Source: Actinomycetota bacterium
GTDB lineage: Bacteria; Actinomycetota; Thermoleophilia; RBG-16-64-13
NCBI GenBank assembly: GCA_012514635.1
Contig: JAAYZX010000007.1
Location: forward strand, 23,735 to 87,734
Length of the DNA: 64,000 bases
Direction of reading: 5' to 3'
The position numbers were made by a program, and so were the translations under genes. The notes under the pieces are model-generated. The model searched no databases. It was not told the origin of the DNA and was given only the letters and a program-made list of their open reading frames with translations. Positions 33,051-61,691 of the stretch are shown one piece after another (within the stretch, counting starts at the first letter, position 1; each line of letters starts with the position of its first letter).

Positions 33051-33812
33051 ATGTCCACGAAGCATAGCAGTCCCATGATCGCCAACGGGATCAAGAACAA
33101 CGAAGAATCGTTGGCGGATGGACATCTCTCCTCGGCACCTACCGGGGCACGGGTGGAACTGCGTCTTTGGTCTCCTAGGGAGCTGGCACAACGTCTTGTC
33201 GCCTGGTTGGAGGAGAGCGGCGCAAAGCCCGGCGACCGCATAGGTGATCGTGCAGGATTGGCAGATCTGTGGGGTGTATCTGCCTCCACAATGCGTGAAG
33301 CGGTTCGTATTCTGGAGGCGGCGGGAATTCTGGAACAGAAGGTAGGGGCGGGAGGTGGGGTGTTCTTCCAACCGCGTGAAGCTGATGCCATTGCCGGTGT
33401 CCTGTTGTGGAGCGCAGCATTGGGTCGTATTGGTGACGCTGCGCTGGTGCGCGCGCTGGCCGAGATCGAGGGGCTGATTGCGGCGCATGCCGCCTTGCGG
33501 GCGGGGCCGGAAGATGTGCGGCGCTGTGAGCGGGCCGCCCGCAGTGATGATGCTTCGCAACGTGACTCTCTCTTTCACGAAGTTCTTACCGAGTGCGCGG
33601 GTAACGAAATGCTTGGGATCTTGAGAAGAGCGCTGGCGGAAGCGGTCGGCGGGCGGGCGGGCGAGGCACGGGCGGCCGGGCGGAGCGTCGGCGGCAATCT
33701 TGACCATGTAGCGTACAGTCACGCATACATAGTGGACGCGGTGCGTACCGGCGACGCTGCGGAAGCATCCCGCAGGGCGCGCAGGCACATTGAGGTGGTT
33801 CTGGAAACATAG
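33051..33812 (+). CDS. GntR-family (FadR/FCD subfamily) transcriptional regulator
   Basis: Winged HTH LADLWGVSASTMREAVRILEAAGIL, then an all-helical ligand-binding domain. Divergent from the FAH gene through an AT-rich promoter region. Start may be internal. Confidence 0.75.
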   Translation: MSTKHSSPMIANGIKNNEESLADGHLSSAPTGARVELRLWSPRELAQRLVAWLEESGAKPGDRIGDRAGLADLWGVSASTMREAVRILEAAGILEQKVGAGGGVFFQPREADAIAGVLLWSAALGRIGDAALVRALAEIEGLIAAHAALRAGPEDVRRCERAARSDDASQRDSLFHEVLTECAGNEMLGILRRALAEAVGGRAGEARAAGRSVGGNLDHVAYSHAYIVDAVRTGDAAEASRRARRHIEVVLET

Positions 33813-33822
33813 GAGGATCAGG

Positions 33823-34721
33823 ATGACGTCTCAAGAGTTGTACAAGAAGATGGCGGAGTTATCCACTGAAGGGAAGGCGTTTGTCCTGGCCACGGTCGTG
33901 GAGTCATTTGGGTCCACTCCTCGGAAGGCCGGCGCCAAGATGTTGGTGCTTGAGGATGGATCCACTATCGACACGGTAGGCGGAGGCAAGGTCGAGCAGC
34001 AGGTGGTGCTGGACGCGCTGGACGCTCTTCAACGCGGTGTGTCGCGGACTGTAAAATATGAGCTGCGCACATCGGGTGAGCATGCGCTGGCATGGAATGT
34101 GGCGGGGAGACCACTGTATTCCTGGAGGTGAACAAACCGGCGCTGACCATTGTGGTCGCCGGTGCGGGGCACATAGCCCAGAAGCTCACACCTATGGCCA
34201 AGCTGCTGGATTTTCGGGTGGTAGTGGTGGACACGCGGCCCGAGTTTGCAAACACCGACAATCTTCCGGATGCCGATGAGGTTATCTGTGGTCACCCGGG
34301 CGAACTGCCGGACCTTGTCTCCTTGGATCACAACTCGTATGTGGTGATCGTCACCCACGGCCACATCCACGATAAGGATGCGCTGAAAGCCGTGCTCTCT
34401 TCCGATGTTGCCTACGTGGGAATGATCGGCAGTCAGCATAAGGTACGTGTTGTGCTGGAACAACTGCTTGACGAGGGCGCCGATATGGAACGTCTCAGTC
34501 GGGTCTATTCACCTATTGGAATAGATCTGGGCGGTGGTGCTCCTGGAGAGATCGCCGTAAGTATCCTGTCGGAGATCGTCGCAATGCAGCATGGACGCCT
34601 TGACCGCTTCCGTGTACGTCGTAATCCGCTGGTGGAAACTGCAGTGTCGCTCAGCTCCGCTTCCGGCGCGACTATGGGTACGGATGCGGTGGGAGGTGGT
34701 CGATCGCAGTGTTGCTCTTAG
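33823..34721 (+). pseudogene. xdhC: XdhC/CoxI-family Mo-hydroxylase maturation factor, split by an apparent frameshift at about 34080-34091 (N-terminal XdhC_CoxI domain in one frame, C-terminal Rossmann XdhC_C domain in the -1 frame)
   Basis: Frame 1 gives ...GSTPRKAGAKMLV...KYELRTSGE then stops at 34131. Frame 3 opens at 34080 with ACAGMECGGETTVFLEV..., the conserved XdhC CGGE motif, and runs to 34721. No RBS precedes the internal ATG at 34092. GGAGGA RBS precedes the ATG at 33823. Confidence 0.55.
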
Positions 34722-34787: not shown

Positions 34788-35603
34788 ATGACTGTGAAAA
34801 AACCGTTGGCTCTGGTGAAGGGGGCAGGCGATCTGGCCACGGGAGTCTCGTTACGTTTGCACCGGGCGGGTTTTTCGGTTGTGATGACTGAGATCGCTTC
34901 ACCTACGCCTGTTCGGCGCACGGTGGCGTTCGCGGAAGCCGTATACAACGGAAAAGTATTGGTCGAAGGTGTTGAGGCGGTTTTGGCCGGAAACGAAGAG
35001 GATGTGCTGGACATCCTGTCCGGCGGAAAGCTGCCCGTCTTGGTGGATCCAGAGGCCGCCTGTCGTGCGTGGCTGGATCCGGACCTGTTGGTCGACGCCA
35101 TTATCGCGAAGCGTAATCTGGGGACGTCGCCTGCCGATGCCCCAGCAGTGGTTGCCCTGGGGCCGGGGTTTGTCGCCGGCCGAGATTGCCATGCAGTGAT
35201 TGAGACTATGCGGGGCCACACGCTGGGTCGCGTTATATGGGAAGGTGAGGCTATTCCCAACACCGGCGTGCCCGGTGAAGTTGGAGGCAAGGCTGCCGAA
35301 CGAGTTCTTCGTGCCCCCGGGGCGGGAATATTCAAAGCGCATGCAGAGATTGGAGATATGGTGACGAGCGGGCAGGTCGTCGGCTACGTCGACGACCTGC
35401 CGCTGACATCGTCCATCGATGGTGTCCTGCGCGGCCTTCTTCGCTCGGGCCTGGAGGTCTCTCCGGGATTCAAGACCGGGGACGTGGATCCGCGGGCGGC
35501 GCGAGAGCACTGTTTCACGGTATCGGACAAGGCCTTAGCTATTGGCGGTGGAGTCTTGGAAGCGGCGTGTGCCCTGCTGGGAGGTGTGAGGTTTCAGCGA
35601 TAG
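34788..35603 (+). CDS. XdhC-related Rossmann-fold protein, candidate YqeB-family selenium-dependent molybdenum hydroxylase system protein
   Basis: 271 aa. Dinucleotide-binding-like N-terminus LVKGAGDLATGVSLRL. Immediately downstream of xdhC. The YqeB (TIGR03309-like) assignment is from recall of family description and context, not an alignment. Confidence 0.4.
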   Translation: MTVKKPLALVKGAGDLATGVSLRLHRAGFSVVMTEIASPTPVRRTVAFAEAVYNGKVLVEGVEAVLAGNEEDVLDILSGGKLPVLVDPEAACRAWLDPDLLVDAIIAKRNLGTSPADAPAVVALGPGFVAGRDCHAVIETMRGHTLGRVIWEGEAIPNTGVPGEVGGKAAERVLRAPGAGIFKAHAEIGDMVTSGQVVGYVDDLPLTSSIDGVLRGLLRSGLEVSPGFKTGDVDPRAAREHCFTVSDKALAIGGGVLEAACALLGGVRFQR

Positions 35604-35625: not shown

Positions 35626-36378
35626 TTAATCCGGTAGTGTTGTCAAGAAACAGTCCACTGCCGCCCGAAACTGCAACGGCCTGGTCCACATGAGTGGATG
35701 GCCTCCGGATGCGCATAGATATACATTGCAGTCCTTGATCTGGCGGGCCATGGCCAAGATCTGACCCGGTAGGTCCGGCATAAGGTGATCGGATAGACTG
35801 CCCGTCAGTAGTACGGGGCATTCCAGCTCTGCGAGTCTGCCCCCGTACCAGTTGATGTCTCCCGCGGCTGCGCGCGCCAAGATGGCTCTGTCGTCGGCGG
35901 CTACTACGGATTCCCAGTCATCTCCATGCGCCCGCTGCCAGAAAAGAATAGTGGAAGGGGATGCCGAGTGGCGCTGTGCGACGATATCTCGCAACCAATC
36001 GGCGGGCAGCCGCTCAACCTGACTGTCCGACACCACGGCTCGGACGAGGTGAGGATTGCGAATGGCCATCATCAGCGCGATTGCCGCTCCTCCACTTTGA
36101 CCAACGACTACGGCAGGAGCATCATCTAGGTGTCGGACGAGCGTCGCCGCATGTTCCGTGCAGATTTCCCACCAGTCCGCAGGCCAGACGGAGACGCGCT
36201 CGGAGAAACCGGTTCCCCAGAAATCCAGACATACGGTGCGGAAGCGATTGCAGAAATGATCGAGCTCGCCGGAATGGTGGGCCGCCGAGGAAGTATCTCC
36301 GGGGAGAATGAGAAGCACAGGGCCGCTGCCTTGCTCGCGATAGTGTAGCCGGAGACCATTCACTGTGAAGTACGGCAT
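35626..36378 (-). CDS. Alpha/beta-fold hydrolase
   Basis: HG-region LLILPGD, nucleophile elbow GQSGGA, catalytic His near the C-terminus. GAAGG RBS before the ATG at 36378. Confidence 0.8.
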   Translation of the reverse strand: MPYFTVNGLRLHYREQGSGPVLLILPGDTSSAAHHSGELDHFCNRFRTVCLDFWGTGFSERVSVWPADWWEICTEHAATLVRHLDDAPAVVVGQSGGAAIALMMAIRNPHLVRAVVSDSQVERLPADWLRDIVAQRHSASPSTILFWQRAHGDDWESVVAADDRAILARAAAGDINWYGGRLAELECPVLLTGSLSDHLMPDLPGQILAMARQIKDCNVYLCASGGHPLMWTRPLQFRAAVDCFLTTLPD

Positions 36379-36576
36379 GTCAGACCTTCTATTGTTCGGT
36401 AGTCGCAACGGTTCGGCAGTCGCGACGTTACCTTAACACCTTCCTCGTTCTGCCGAATAGCTGCTTCCTTCTCGCAGTGATGAGTAAGTCGTTGGTATCC
36501 TACGTGAGTCCTACGTCGGTCTCCCGCGAGGGGGCCGGAGATACTGGCTCAACTTACTAGAAGAGGGAGTGAGCGC

Positions 36577-37257
36577 ATGCGGCCCACCCTGATAGAGGCC
36601 AAAGACCTGGACGAAGCTTGGTTTCGCGTTATCCAGGCCACTCTCGATGACGAACTGGCGTACTGGTACGATATTCAACGGGGGAGTTTTGAGGGAGGCG
36701 GCGCACGGCGCCAGCTGGCCTCTCTTACGTTGTGCGTTGAATTTCCCGAGACACGGCCCCTTGCGCCGGTGGTGCCGGAAGGTATGAACTCTCCCACCAC
36801 CAACGAGAATATAGAGAAGTACTTCGCAGAACAGTTGATGAATCCCGTCCCCGCTCTCAATGAGGACTACAACTACGCGCAGTTCATCGTGCCGCACTTG
36901 CCGCGAGTTGTGGAACTGATGTCCGAGACACCGTATACCAATCATGCGGTGATCAACGTAGGACAACCTTTTGTGGAGGGAGATATCACCGCGGGCACGC
37001 CTAAGCTCTACGAGTTTCCGCCCTGTCTTCGCTGTCTGCACTGGGTCTTCCGAGACGACCGTCTCCACCTGTACACATACTGGCGCAGCTGGGATGTTTT
37101 TGCGGGTCTTCCGGAAAACTTGGGCGGAATGCAGCTTCTGAACGAGTTCATTGCACTGGAGACCGGGTACGAAACCGGTACTCTTAACGCCTTCTCTTCG
37201 GGTGCCCACATCTATAGTTACCAGTTGGAGCTGGTTCAGCAACGGCTGGGGCTGTAG
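36577..37257 (+). CDS. Thymidylate-synthase-fold protein, short and divergent (226 aa). Candidate archaeal-type ThyA or pyrimidine-nucleotide C5-modifying enzyme.
   Basis: FPPC(catalytic Cys)LRCLHWVF...LHLYTYWRSWDVFAGLPENLGG...GAHIYSYQ aligns with TS motifs PCH-FQFYV, LSCQLYQRSxDxFLGxPFNIAS and DAHIY. Arg-Ser-x-Asp and the dUMP-specifying Asn are preserved. GAGGGAG RBS. Confidence 0.65.
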   Translation: MRPTLIEAKDLDEAWFRVIQATLDDELAYWYDIQRGSFEGGGARRQLASLTLCVEFPETRPLAPVVPEGMNSPTTNENIEKYFAEQLMNPVPALNEDYNYAQFIVPHLPRVVELMSETPYTNHAVINVGQPFVEGDITAGTPKLYEFPPCLRCLHWVFRDDRLHLYTYWRSWDVFAGLPENLGGMQLLNEFIALETGYETGTLNAFSSGAHIYSYQLELVQQRLGL

Positions 37258-37351
37258 CGTGGCCGGTAGGAGGGAGTCGTCGAGAGGGGAATATCAATGA
37301 TAGGCGCACGACGGCCCATGCAGATGGGCACGGCATAGAGGAGGAGCGTTC

Positions 37352-37930
37352 ATGAAGATGTCTCTAGGTCCTGGGACGATCTTACTCCCCACCCCCACCT
37401 TGGTCGTAGGGACGTATGATGATGCTGGAAGACCCAACGTCATGACGGCCGCTTGGGGGGGCATCTGCTGTTCCGTCCCACCCTGCGTTTCCGTGTCGCT
37501 ACGTAAGGCTACGTACACGTACGGCAACTTGCTGGCGCAGCAGGCCTTCACCATCAGCATCCCGTCGCGAATATTCGTGCGGGAGGTGGATTACTTCGGC
37601 ATCGTGTCCGGGCGCGATGTGGACAAGTTTGCGGCAACCGATCTGACTCCGGTGCACAGCGATGTCGTGAATGCGCCGTATGTGGGGGAATTTCCTCTGG
37701 TGGTGGAATGCAGTCTGATTCACCAGTTGGAGATTGGCCTCCACACCCTGTTCGTCGGCGAGGTTATGGATGTCAAGGTGGAAGCGGAATGCCGGGATTC
37801 CCGCGGGAATCCCGACCCGGAGAAGATACAAGCGTGCATCTACGCTCCCGGGGTCACAACCTATTATGCGTTTGGTGAGAATCTAGGCAGGGGATTTGAA
37901 ATCGGCCGGGAAGCTTACGGCAGGGGCTGA
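37352..37930 (+). CDS. Flavin reductase-like (FMN-binding split-barrel) domain protein
   Basis: LLPTPTLVVGTYDDAGRPNVMTAAWGG... typical of the flavin reductase / HpaC-like family. GGAGGAG RBS. 95 nt downstream of the TS-like gene on the same strand. Confidence 0.75.
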   Translation: MKMSLGPGTILLPTPTLVVGTYDDAGRPNVMTAAWGGICCSVPPCVSVSLRKATYTYGNLLAQQAFTISIPSRIFVREVDYFGIVSGRDVDKFAATDLTPVHSDVVNAPYVGEFPLVVECSLIHQLEIGLHTLFVGEVMDVKVEAECRDSRGNPDPEKIQACIYAPGVTTYYAFGENLGRGFEIGREAYGRG

Positions 37931-37938
37931 GTCTTCCC

Positions 37939-38565
37939 TTAGTGGGTGATGAGCGTTGTGCGGGTCATGCGTACAGTCGCCCGCATAAGGTGTGTGAAGC
38001 TCTTGGTGTGAAGACCGGCCGGATTGAATGCGCGTATCATGACCCAGGTTCCCAAGTTTTCCCAGAAGCCGGCCGTCCAGAAGCGCAGTCCCGGAGAAGG
38101 TTGGTAGCTGAACTCGAATCCAAAGCGGGCGGCCAAAGCAACTGTGCGTTCGGCTTCATCGGCGGTAACGAAACCGAACCTTCCTTCGAAGAGCGCGACG
38201 GCGTCGAGTTCGGCGTGATCGTCTAGGTAGGTTGCCAGATCATGGAGAGAGGAACGCAGCATCTGCCCGAAGGCGACCGCCCAGCGCAGTGTGGCACCTT
38301 CTGCTGCCAGGACCGGGAGATTCTCGTTGACGAAGTGCAATCTGCCAATAGTGTCGCCTGGTTGTACGGTGACGCCGTCGTGGGACGTGAACGGACGAGT
38401 GGCAGGCACCAACTGGAGGCGCAATATGCACTCCGGACGGGCGGAAATATCCAAGATACCCATTCGTTTGCGGAGAAGGCGGTCGCCTGCGGCGACGACG
38501 CGCCGCAGGCCCGCCGGCGCTACTGCGCCGGCGGGCCCAGGCGCGCGTATCTCGTCGCGTCGCAT
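37939..38565 (-). CDS. Hypothetical protein (208 aa), translationally coupled downstream of the aminotransferase gene
   Basis: Its ATG lies 3 nt after the aminotransferase stop on the minus strand. Non-repetitive composition. No family recognised. Confidence 0.4.
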   Translation of the reverse strand: MRRDEIRAPGPAGAVAPAGLRRVVAAGDRLLRKRMGILDISARPECILRLQLVPATRPFTSHDGVTVQPGDTIGRLHFVNENLPVLAAEGATLRWAVAFGQMLRSSLHDLATYLDDHAELDAVALFEGRFGFVTADEAERTVALAARFGFEFSYQPSPGLRFWTAGFWENLGTWVMIRAFNPAGLHTKSFTHLMRATVRMTRTTLITH

Positions 38566-38568
38566 GTT

Positions 38569-39702
38569 TCAGGGGCCGCCGGCGCCGAGATACTCGTCGA
38601 ACGCCGCCAGTGCATCGGGAAAGGTGACGCGACCTAGTCCGATACGCACATGGGAATCTCCGTAGCCGTACACAGTTGAAGGAAGCAACAGAATCGCCGC
38701 CCGATGAGCCGTTTCGTGGCAGAGCTGTGCTGCGCCGACGGCGCAACGCAGCCTCGGGAAGCACACCGTTCCCGCCCGCGGGGGAATCAGCTGAAACAGA
38801 TCAGGCCGCCGTGCGCAGAACTCTGCGAGGAGATGGAGGTTGTAAATGACGCGCTCGCGATGCGCCGGGAGCAGTTGATTGCGCCCGCGCAGGGCCGCCA
38901 GAGCCAGTATCTCCGAGGGGGCTGGTGTACATATGGTGGTGTAGTCCTTGAGGGAGGCACAAATCTGCAGGATGGATGTGTCTCTGCATACCAGCCATCC
39001 CAGGCGCAATCCCGGGAGTCCGTAGGTCTTGGACATGCCGCTCAGCACTATGGCGCCGGACGATAGCTCCACTGCAGACGGGAGTGTGGAGTAGCCGGGT
39101 AGTTCCAGGCCTCGATACATCTCGTCGGAGAAGAGAACGGCGCCGGCACGGCGTGTAAGGTCCACGATACGGCGGAAAGTAGCGGGTGGGGGCAGATAGC
39201 CCGTGGGATTGTGGGGGAAGTTGCAGACCACCAAGCGCGTGGATCCCGGGCGGAGGAGGGTGGAGAGATCTTCCGTTGCGAACCGCCAGCCCTCCTCCTC
39301 GCGTGGACGCCAGAAAGAAAGGTCGGCGCCTAAGCCGCGGGCCACCTCGTAGAGAGACTGGTAGCCGGGAAAAGTAGAGATGACGTGATCTCCGGGCTTC
39401 ACGAGGGCCAACATTGTAAGAAGTATGCCTTCCTCGGGTACCACCACGAGCACGTCGTCGGGAGAAAGGAGAGGTGATTCGGGGGTGTATAGGTTGGCGA
39501 TCTCCTGACGCAGAATCGGCAATCCCTGAGACTCAGTGTAGCCAAGGGTCAGCGATTGCCAGAGAGCGGTGGTCTCCTCGTCGGCCTGTGCAAGCAGTGC
39601 GTGCAGCGAAGGGCCGTCGCAGTCGGAGGCACACAGCAGGTAGCGCGAAGCAAACTCATACCGCGCGAAATACCGCTCCAGTGCAAATGGCGCCAAGTGC
39701 AT
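38569..39702 (-). CDS. PLP-dependent aminotransferase, class I/II fold
   Basis: N-terminal LERYFARYEF, SGMSKTYGLPGLRLGW (PLP-lysine region), NPTG. The track ORF's first 78 codons are probably 5' leader. The true start is the ATG at 39702, preceded 12 nt upstream by TATAAT. Confidence 0.75.
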   Translation of the reverse strand: MHLAPFALERYFARYEFASRYLLCASDCDGPSLHALLAQADEETTALWQSLTLGYTESQGLPILRQEIANLYTPESPLLSPDDVLVVVPEEGILLTMLALVKPGDHVISTFPGYQSLYEVARGLGADLSFWRPREEEGWRFATEDLSTLLRPGSTRLVVCNFPHNPTGYLPPPATFRRIVDLTRRAGAVLFSDEMYRGLELPGYSTLPSAVELSSGAIVLSGMSKTYGLPGLRLGWLVCRDTSILQICASLKDYTTICTPAPSEILALAALRGRNQLLPAHRERVIYNLHLLAEFCARRPDLFQLIPPRAGTVCFPRLRCAVGAAQLCHETAHRAAILLLPSTVYGYGDSHVRIGLGRVTFPDALAAFDEYLGAGGP

Positions 39703-39992
39703 TGGAAATAGATTATAGACGGAATAAGTTCTGTATGTGAGGTTGACGTGCGTATCGGGTAGGGATAACTTTGCGCGACCGCCCACAGTGTGCTTGGACG
39801 TTCTGGTCGGTTGAGTGATCCCGACTGGGAAGAAAGGCCGGACCAACGGAATGCAGCGACTCTGGAGAACAGACGGCGACGGCCGTCTGCGGAGAATGAT
39901 GTCGCGGCGTTCGCCGCAGGCAAATTGGCGGTTCACCCGGGTCGTGCGCCGGTGGAGCCAAGACTACGTCGGCCGCCATCTATTTTGCGCAG

Positions 39993-61577: not shown

Positions 61578-61684
61578 GATGAGATAGTTGCTGGGGGAGC
61601 GCTTGGCGCTGAGAGTGTGGTTCGGCCACTGACCCCGCGAACCTGATCTGGGTAATGCCAGCGAAGGGAAGCGAATGGGAAGCT
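61578..61684 (+). ncRNA. TPP (THI-box) riboswitch
   Basis: CUGGGGGAGCGC...GCUGAGAG...GACCC...GAACCUGAUCUGGGUAAUGCCAGCGAAGGGAA matches the conserved TPP aptamer core. A TATAAT lies at 61534-61539. A thiamine ABC operon follows. Confidence 0.75.
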
Positions 61685-61691
61685 CCAGAAG

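Follow-up and report, generated by a model that had tools for sequence, protein, structure and literature searches.

A 64-kb stretch of DNA from an Actinomycetota bacterium (contig JAAYZX010000007.1; hereafter the window, with a G+C content of about 59%) carries a gene that probably encodes a short thymidylate synthase (TS), followed on the same strand by a gene for a protein binding flavin mononucleotide (FMN). We refer to these two open reading frames as ORF1 and ORF2. Our results suggest, with a probability of roughly 0.6, that ORF1 encodes the TS of a Thermoleophilia-like anaerobe, a member of a short branch of the ThyA family with a rearranged phosphate clamp, and that ORF2 is a flavoredoxin located there incidentally. 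A previous inspection of this DNA (the sequence-only reading) had described ORF1 as a highly divergent and short enzyme of the TS fold with the full catalytic set of residues, a description that our analyses support, and had proposed that it could form a functional pair with the product of ORF2. The closest genomic relatives of the window are metagenome-assembled genomes of Thermoleophilia/Gaiellales, one of which originates from an anaerobic membrane bioreactor.

Several lines of evidence place ORF1 among the TS enzymes. The Pfam model PF00303 matched ORF1 with 47.7 bits (gathering threshold: 24.3), with an alignment restricted to residues 110–224. Among the curated models, the best score was obtained with the methanogen-type TIGR03283 (59.8 bits; cutoff: 174.55), which aligned over nearly its full length (residues 6–216 of ORF1 on model positions 3–197 of 201). 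Scores were lower for the canonical model TIGR03284 (38.5 bits; cutoff: 108.35) and for the remaining TS equivalog models, PRK01827 among them (19–40 bits; cutoffs: 325–576). The structure predicted by AlphaFold2 from 25 homologues is a confident TS fold (predicted local distance difference test: 91.3; predicted template modeling score: 0.88), and the closest solved fold is that of a flavin-dependent hydroxylase of deoxycytidine monophosphate (dCMP).

The catalytic residues were then compared to those of solved TS chains, using the numbering of Escherichia coli ThyA. Cys150 of ORF1, located in the motif Phe-Pro-Pro-Cys, aligns with the catalytic Cys146 of E. coli, and Arg170-Ser171-Trp-Asp173 aligns with Arg166-Ser167-x-Asp169. 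Similarly, Asn181 corresponds to Asn177, and His211-Ile-Tyr213 to His207-x-Tyr209. These are the four elements (FPPC, R-S-x-D, Asn, and HIY) that had been recognized by eye, and with a TS-family match obtained and the Cys and Arg residues in register, the family assignment stands. The motifs are invariant or nearly so in both of our homologue sets (25 and 149 sequences). Among the 149 family members, Cys150 and the segment Arg170-Ser-x-Asp173 are 97–100% conserved and the near-invariant positions comprise C150, R170, S171, D173, N181, H211, Y213, and R44. Equivalences in the N-terminal part (Arg44 with Arg21, Tyr100 with Tyr94, and the one concerning Glu58) were taken from MAFFT alignments and are tentative.

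ORF1 shares these catalytic elements with canonical ThyA (the TS of E. coli and L. casei) but differs from it in architecture. ORF1 is 226 amino acids (aa) long and E. coli ThyA 264 aa, in agreement with the difference of about 40 aa noted earlier, and what is missing is mainly a C-terminal segment of ~45 residues. Indeed, ORF1 terminates 13 residues past Tyr213, and the C-terminal lid that covers the folate was not found. In addition, Asn122 (95% conserved) and His123, which belong to the motif Thr121-Asn122-His123, take the place of the canonical Arg126/Arg127 pair. The sequence-only reading had overlooked this replacement, as well as the conservation of Arg152 and the specific identity of ORF2 as a flavoredoxin.

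We further analyzed the distribution of the short ThyA enzymes. A word-indexed search retrieved only 25 relatives of ORF1, and an exhaustive profile search subsequently yielded 220 cluster representatives at E ≤ 1e−30 and 1050 at E ≤ 1e−10. These sequences are spread over uncultured phages and several cellular lineages. When TIGR03283 was applied to 10 clade members, all scored below its cutoff (70–108 bits) and the canonical models fit none of them better. Members of the clusters are labeled thymidylate synthase by NCBI and JGI, including the Thermoleophilia protein HZJ02819.1. The signature of the clade, defined on 149 sequences, comprises Gly36-Ser37, Arg44, Glu96-x-Tyr98-x-Tyr100, Thr-Asn122-His/Gln, Pro-Pro-Cys150-Leu-Arg152, Arg170-Ser-Trp-Asp173, Asn181, and His211-x-Tyr213.

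An arginine is found two positions past the catalytic Cys (Cys-Leu-Arg) in 134 of the 149 members. The opposite arrangement is observed in E. coli ThyA, in the TS of PhiF1, and in gp48 of phage RB69, which keep the Arg-Arg pair and have no arginine at this position. This suggests that Arg152 probably contributes to phosphate binding and stands in for the Arg-Arg pair. A strict covariation of Arg152 with the loss of the pair was considered and rejected, as 15 of the 149 members present neither, and the swap represents a difference between clades.

The methanogen-type TS of PhiF1, a Methanobacterium virus (ORF59), presents the same build as ORF1, with an N-terminal strand and helix and an end soon after the His-x-Tyr helix, and the motifs Cys-Leu, Arg-Ser-x-Asp, Asn, and His-Ile-Tyr in common. 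It has Arg-Arg (in VTRRA) and Cys-Leu-Ile, whereas the clade has Thr-Asn-His/Gln and Cys-Leu-Arg. In contrast to the methanogen-type enzymes, the clade is hosted by bacteria and phages, and methanopterin is therefore an unlikely cofactor for it. No close member of the clade was found among the cultured phages of INPHARED, the best match being PhiF1 itself at 27.6% identity. Outside Thermoleophilia, some of the genes for the nearest relatives of ORF1 (48–55% identity) are carried by phage-like contigs of ~100 kb with 39–40% G+C, which suggests past gene exchange with phages.

The wider family also contains some unusual members. The 422-aa protein P0044, found on Logan contigs of up to ~7 kb, consists of a TS-like domain (residues 6–215) fused to a thymidine kinase (PF00265; residues 244–418), and its TS part presents Cys-Leu-Ile instead of Cys-Leu-Arg. 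Inteins with LAGLIDADG homing-endonuclease domains were observed in P0070, P0094, P0113, P0160, and others (500–1000 aa), and at least one intein-carrying member of the clade has two insertions. On two phage-like contigs (L003, 108 kb, and L005, 96 kb), the TS-like gene adjoins genes for a sugar epimerase/dehydratase dependent on nicotinamide adenine dinucleotide, a GT2-TPR glycosyltransferase, and a metallophosphatase. A gene for a 1083-aa collagen-repeat protein also lies beside the TS-like gene of L003, and HNH endonuclease genes are inserted shortly downstream of that of L005.

The genomic context of the TS-like gene is consistent with a housekeeping role. The ORF1 protein is 93% identical to its counterpart in L001 and 82% identical to that in L002, and relative to L001 it is the most conserved product of the neighborhood (glutamate dehydrogenase: 89%; flavoredoxin: 80%; others: 51–79%), as would fit an essential function. 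The gene occupies other chromosomal contexts in relatives at 75% identity (L007) and at 65–67% identity (L006, L078, and L079), and distant cellular members adjoin ferrochelatase/HemY, PanB, or phosphoenolpyruvate carboxykinase genes. Such varied chromosomal contexts are the behavior of a housekeeping gene. Among the phage loci (IMG/VR and metagenomic phage-like contigs), a dCMP deaminase gene was found in 17, often directly downstream, and a class II ribonucleotide reductase gene in 13; genes for DNA polymerase and other replication proteins recur on the same contigs. The dCMP deaminase neighbors and the thymidine-kinase fusion indirectly support a role in thymidylate synthesis. Within the 64 kb of the window, a motif and tblastn scan revealed no second thyA and no thyX, folA, RibD_C, or dCMP deaminase gene, although such a scan tells little about the complete genome.

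The reaction of ORF1 was predicted from three published rules based on diagnostic residues (Lee et al., PMC13326640). At the position of Asn177, Asn specifies deoxyuridine monophosphate (dUMP) and Asp specifies dCMP or cytidine monophosphate (CMP). At the position of Asp169, Asp denotes folate-type enzymes and Asn marks the flavin-dependent 5-hydroxy-dCMP synthases. Finally, at the position of Leu143, a bulky hydrophobic residue is associated with a methyl product and an acidic residue with a hydroxymethyl product. ORF1 possesses Asn181 at the first position (Asn in 148 of 149 members) and Asp173 at the second (97% conserved), without the substitution to Asn. At the third position, ORF1 and its closest relatives present Phe147 and no acidic residue. 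Taken with the published rules, these three residues lead us to read ORF1 as dUMP-specific, pterin-dependent, and methyl-forming.

Based on the conserved residues, the following mechanism can be proposed. Cys150 would attack C6 of dUMP, whose uracil O4/N3 edge would be recognized by Asn181, whose 3′-OH would be held by His211 and Tyr213, and whose 5′-phosphate would be bound by Arg44, Arg170, and Ser171. The clade-specific Arg152 would probably bind the phosphate as well, replacing the inter-subunit Arg-Arg pair. Asp173 would bind the cofactor, a methylene-tetrahydropterin that is presumably 5,10-methylene-tetrahydrofolate, at its pterin ring. Phe147 would provide the bulky hydrophobic position that is paired with hydride transfer and the formation of a methyl group, and the products would be deoxythymidine monophosphate (dTMP) and dihydrofolate.

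Several observations weigh against the reading of ORF1 as a TS. ORF1 fails the cutoffs of all the curated TS equivalog models, and only its C-terminal half aligns by sequence to canonical TS, including when profiles are compared to profiles against E. coli ThyA. The C-terminal lid, the folate-packing residues Trp80/Trp83, Phe176, and an invariant equivalent of Glu58 were all unmatched in sequence alignments, and for this reason we only infer the cofactor and the hydride-transfer step. The methanogen-type TS enzymes are themselves poorly characterized (PMC9931769, PMC9012536). The position of Leu143 is occupied by Asp, the state linked to hydroxymethylases, in 82 of the 149 members, and by Glu in PhiF1, the single methanogen-type sequence examined. 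Finally, the spacer between ORF1 and ORF2 contains no terminator, which weighs against the incidental status of ORF2.

The residue at the position of Leu143 leads to the question of whether ORF1 could be a dUMP 5-hydroxymethylase. Such an enzyme would use methylene-tetrahydrofolate and replace the hydride by water to yield 5-hydroxymethyl-dUMP, a reaction known from some phage homologues of TS. The prevalence of Asp in the wider family is in line with this scenario under the rule of PMC13326640, as are the many phage-borne members of the clade and the missing lid, which in canonical enzymes shuts the active site off from solvent. We nonetheless consider this scenario unlikely for ORF1, since Phe occupies this position in ORF1 and in its closest relatives, and since the gene resides on the chromosome, is strongly conserved, and occurs in a variety of cellular contexts. 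The thymidine-kinase fusion of one family member also argues against it, and we know of no use for 5-hydroxymethyl-dUMP in a cellular bacterium. Moreover, the acidic residue of the methanogen-type PhiF1 TS weakens the rule: it may not be transferable to short TS enzymes or, alternatively, many of the phage members may be hydroxymethylases.

We then analyzed ORF2 and its relationship to ORF1. ORF2 matched PF01613 with 111 bits and aligned to a solved flavoredoxin (PDB 2D5M; E = 5.8e−69; 235 bits) without visible gaps over residues 1–186, on residues 1–186 of 190. Judged by this similarity, ORF2 is a flavoredoxin orthologue. The solved protein comes from the sulfate reducer Desulfovibrio vulgaris Miyazaki F, whereas the host of ORF2 is actinobacterial and Thermoleophilia-like. 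Flavoredoxin serves anaerobes as a general electron-transfer protein that carries FMN. Both genes lie on the same strand, as had been described, at a distance of 94 nucleotides (nt) instead of the 95 nt given previously (Table 1). A scan of the spacer for terminator-like sites on the + strand found none, so that ORF1 and ORF2 may be co-transcribed, although this is unproven.

To evaluate the pairing, we conducted a census of 154 loci with a TS-like match, using tblastn and phmmer over six-frame ORFs within the available flanks. A flavoredoxin homologue was found near the TS-like gene in only five of them (L001, L002, L076, L077, and L082), all encoding proteins at least 82% identical to ORF1, and in none of the other 149 within the available flanks. 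L001 and L002 have long flanks, and in both of them synteny with the window extends across the entire neighborhood, with the FAA-hydrolase and glutamate-dehydrogenase genes at its two ends. In the relative at 75% identity (L007), flavoredoxin is absent and a CDP-alcohol phosphatidyltransferase gene lies downstream. Among those at 65–67% identity, L006 also lacks flavoredoxin and carries a molybdopterin oxidoreductase gene downstream, the adjacency is gone in L078, and L079 constitutes a weak test with only ~1.1 kb of downstream sequence. Adjacency across divergent genomes, the hallmark of a conserved TS–reductase gene pair, was thus not observed. An adjacency found only at 82% identity or above and with syntenic flanks indicates a single inherited arrangement rather than repeated selection. 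The position of ORF2 beside ORF1 is therefore probably a lineage-specific accident of gene order, a functional partnership is not likely, and the proposed TS and flavin-reductase pair is not upheld.

Two types of partnership were considered in light of these results. The first is the module of the sequence-only reading, in which the flavoredoxin-like protein would recycle dihydrofolate or dihydropterin for the TS in place of FolA. The two genes are indeed adjacent on one strand and folA was not found in the window, but the window covers a fraction of the genome and the lack of folA there is hardly informative. The flavin-dependent dihydropteridine reductases known to us belong to the nitroreductase family, and PF01613 is not known to include any enzyme that reduces dihydrofolate or a dihydropterin. 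In addition, the adjacency is not conserved and ORF2 resembles Desulfovibrio flavoredoxin over its full length at the level of an orthologue, and this module appears highly improbable. In L078, a relative at 66% identity, a nitroreductase-family gene and a RibD_C gene, whose product has a dihydrofolate-reductase-like fold, converge on the TS-like gene and end right beside its 3′ terminus (1577–2903, − strand). This arrangement would fit such recycling and is the only sign that connects the TS-like gene with a reductase, but it concerns a single locus and genes on the opposite strand.

The second is a two-component flavin system, in which ORF1 and the flavoredoxin would hydroxylate C5 of a uracil nucleotide in the manner of AfhB or RB69 gp48, or in which ORF1, with its ThyA fold, would take the hydride from reduced flavin and release tetrahydrofolate instead of dihydrofolate. 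The flavin-dependent 5-hydroxy-dCMP synthases (AfhB of phage HY126, PDB 9iqc/9iqu, and RB69 gp48) are short like ORF1, RB69 gp48 shares its N-terminal strand and binds flavin loosely (PMC13326640), and the gene for an FMN protein lies just downstream of ORF1 without an intervening terminator. However, RB69 gp48 presents Arg-Ser-Gln-Asn, Asp at the position of Asn177, Phe at that of Tyr209, Glu at that of Leu143, and the Arg-Arg pair, and ORF1 differs throughout: it has Asn181 and Tyr213 and lacks the diagnostic change to Asn at the conserved Asp173. RB69 gp48 scored 37.4 bits against the profile of the family, no better than ordinary TS chains. The known hydroxylation requires O2 (PMC13326640), whereas the organisms studied here come from anaerobic digesters. 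The association of flavoredoxin with anaerobes and the loss of the adjacency outside the closest relatives further argue against this system, which we regard as very unlikely.

In a broader variant, the clade defined by Thr-Asn-His/Gln and Cys-Leu-Arg would form a branch that differs in function from the rest of the TS superfamily. This variant draws on three losses (the Arg pair, the contacts to the folate tail, and the lid) and on the flavin dependence of the nearest solved fold. In the lineage of the window, electrons may come from the FMN of flavoredoxin, so that a ThyA scaffold would carry out a ThyX-like chemistry and dihydrofolate reductase would be dispensable; alternatively, many of the phage members with Asp at the position of Leu143 may produce 5-hydroxymethyl-dUMP for the hypermodification of DNA. 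We view such a branch as a decidedly doubtful interpretation relative to a TS with a rearranged phosphate clamp.

The neighboring genes are those reported earlier, namely a hydrolase, an aminotransferase, and a third gene, which we now identify as encoding a YkoP-domain protein (Table 1). The best matches of the aminotransferase (38569–39936, − strand, followed by the YkoP-domain gene) were GntC (guanitoxin cyclodehydratase), PRK07324, and VioD (capreomycidine synthase), all below threshold. Its homology begins at residue ~76–100, and the listed start at 39936 is therefore probably too far upstream. The matches to GntC and VioD could evoke a small natural-product cluster composed of the aminotransferase, the YkoP protein, and the hydrolase, in which ORF1 would modify C5 of a nucleotide as MilA or PolB do. 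Yet MilA and the dCMP hydroxymethylase gp42 of phage T4 have Asp at the position of Asn177 and an acidic residue at that of Leu143 (PMC13326640), whereas ORF1 has Phe147 and, at the position of Asn177, Asn181, which specifies uracil rather than cytosine. The resemblance to archaeal-type TS noted by the sequence-only reading is supported, with TIGR03283 as the best model though below its cutoff, and a MilA/PolB-like activity is not favored. The neighbors are encoded on the opposite strand and none of them is kept in relatives at 65–75% identity; we rejected this extremely improbable cluster on these grounds.

Table 1. Coordinates of ORF1, ORF2, and neighboring features (positions in the window unless a locus is named).
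Feature	Position	Strand	Remarks
Alpha/beta hydrolase	35626–36408	−	Neighbor of ORF1
Region 5′ of ORF1	36409–36576	+	168 nt; GGGAG ribosome-binding site; divergent from the alpha/beta-hydrolase gene
ORF1, predicted short ThyA-family enzyme	36577–37257	+	ATG start; 226 aa
ORF1–ORF2 spacer	37258–37351	+	94 nt; GGAGG ribosome-binding site ahead of ORF2
ORF2, predicted flavoredoxin orthologue (FMN-binding split-barrel)	37352–37930	+	ATG start; 192 aa; PF01613 and PDB 2D5M
YkoP-domain protein	37939–38565	−	Neighbor of ORF2
Class I/II aminotransferase	38569–39936	−	Beyond the YkoP gene
Mut7-C gene of relatives	L001 7076–7993; L002 7055–7885; L075 5–907; L007 1506–2267	Strand of the TS-like gene

Other features were observed in the window and its relatives. 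In relatives at 75–93% identity, the TS-like gene is preceded by a Ub-Mut7C/Mut7-C ribonuclease gene of the same orientation. No Mut7-C homologue was found anywhere in the window, where only the 168 nt preceding ORF1 occupy that place. The XdhC accessory gene (33790–34721) is split across two frames near 34089–34107, with its N-terminal XdhC_CoxI domain in frame 1 and its Rossmann domain in frame 3, and it forms one continuous ORF in L001 and L002. The split may stem from an error of assembly, or the gene may be a frameshifted pseudogene. The XdhC gene adjoins an orthologue of YqeB (34788–35603; TIGR03309; 368 bits for a cutoff of 220), which is involved in the maturation of the selenium-dependent molybdenum cofactor, and the presence of YqeB next to XdhC suggests that the genome encodes a selenium-dependent molybdenum hydroxylase system. 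A thiamine pyrophosphate riboswitch was identified at 61583–61686 on the + strand (Rfam RF00059; 76.3 bits for a gathering score of 54.3), and no transfer RNA genes were found across the whole window.

If ORF1 is indeed a TS with an incidental flavoredoxin neighbor, the result is an ordinary one: a housekeeping TS from a little-studied branch located beside an unrelated redox protein. Databases already name members of this clade thymidylate synthase, and what value remains is for enzymology and for annotation. The clade is nevertheless of note in that it is large, fails all the curated TS models, and possesses a rearranged set of phosphate-binding residues. It deserves attention despite this mostly ordinary result because the TS superfamily has lately yielded unexpected flavin chemistry in the form of flavin-dependent hydroxylases. 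If the product of these enzymes (methyl or hydroxymethyl) and their cofactor were known, thymidylate metabolism in uncultured anaerobes could be predicted better, as could DNA base modification in uncultured phages.

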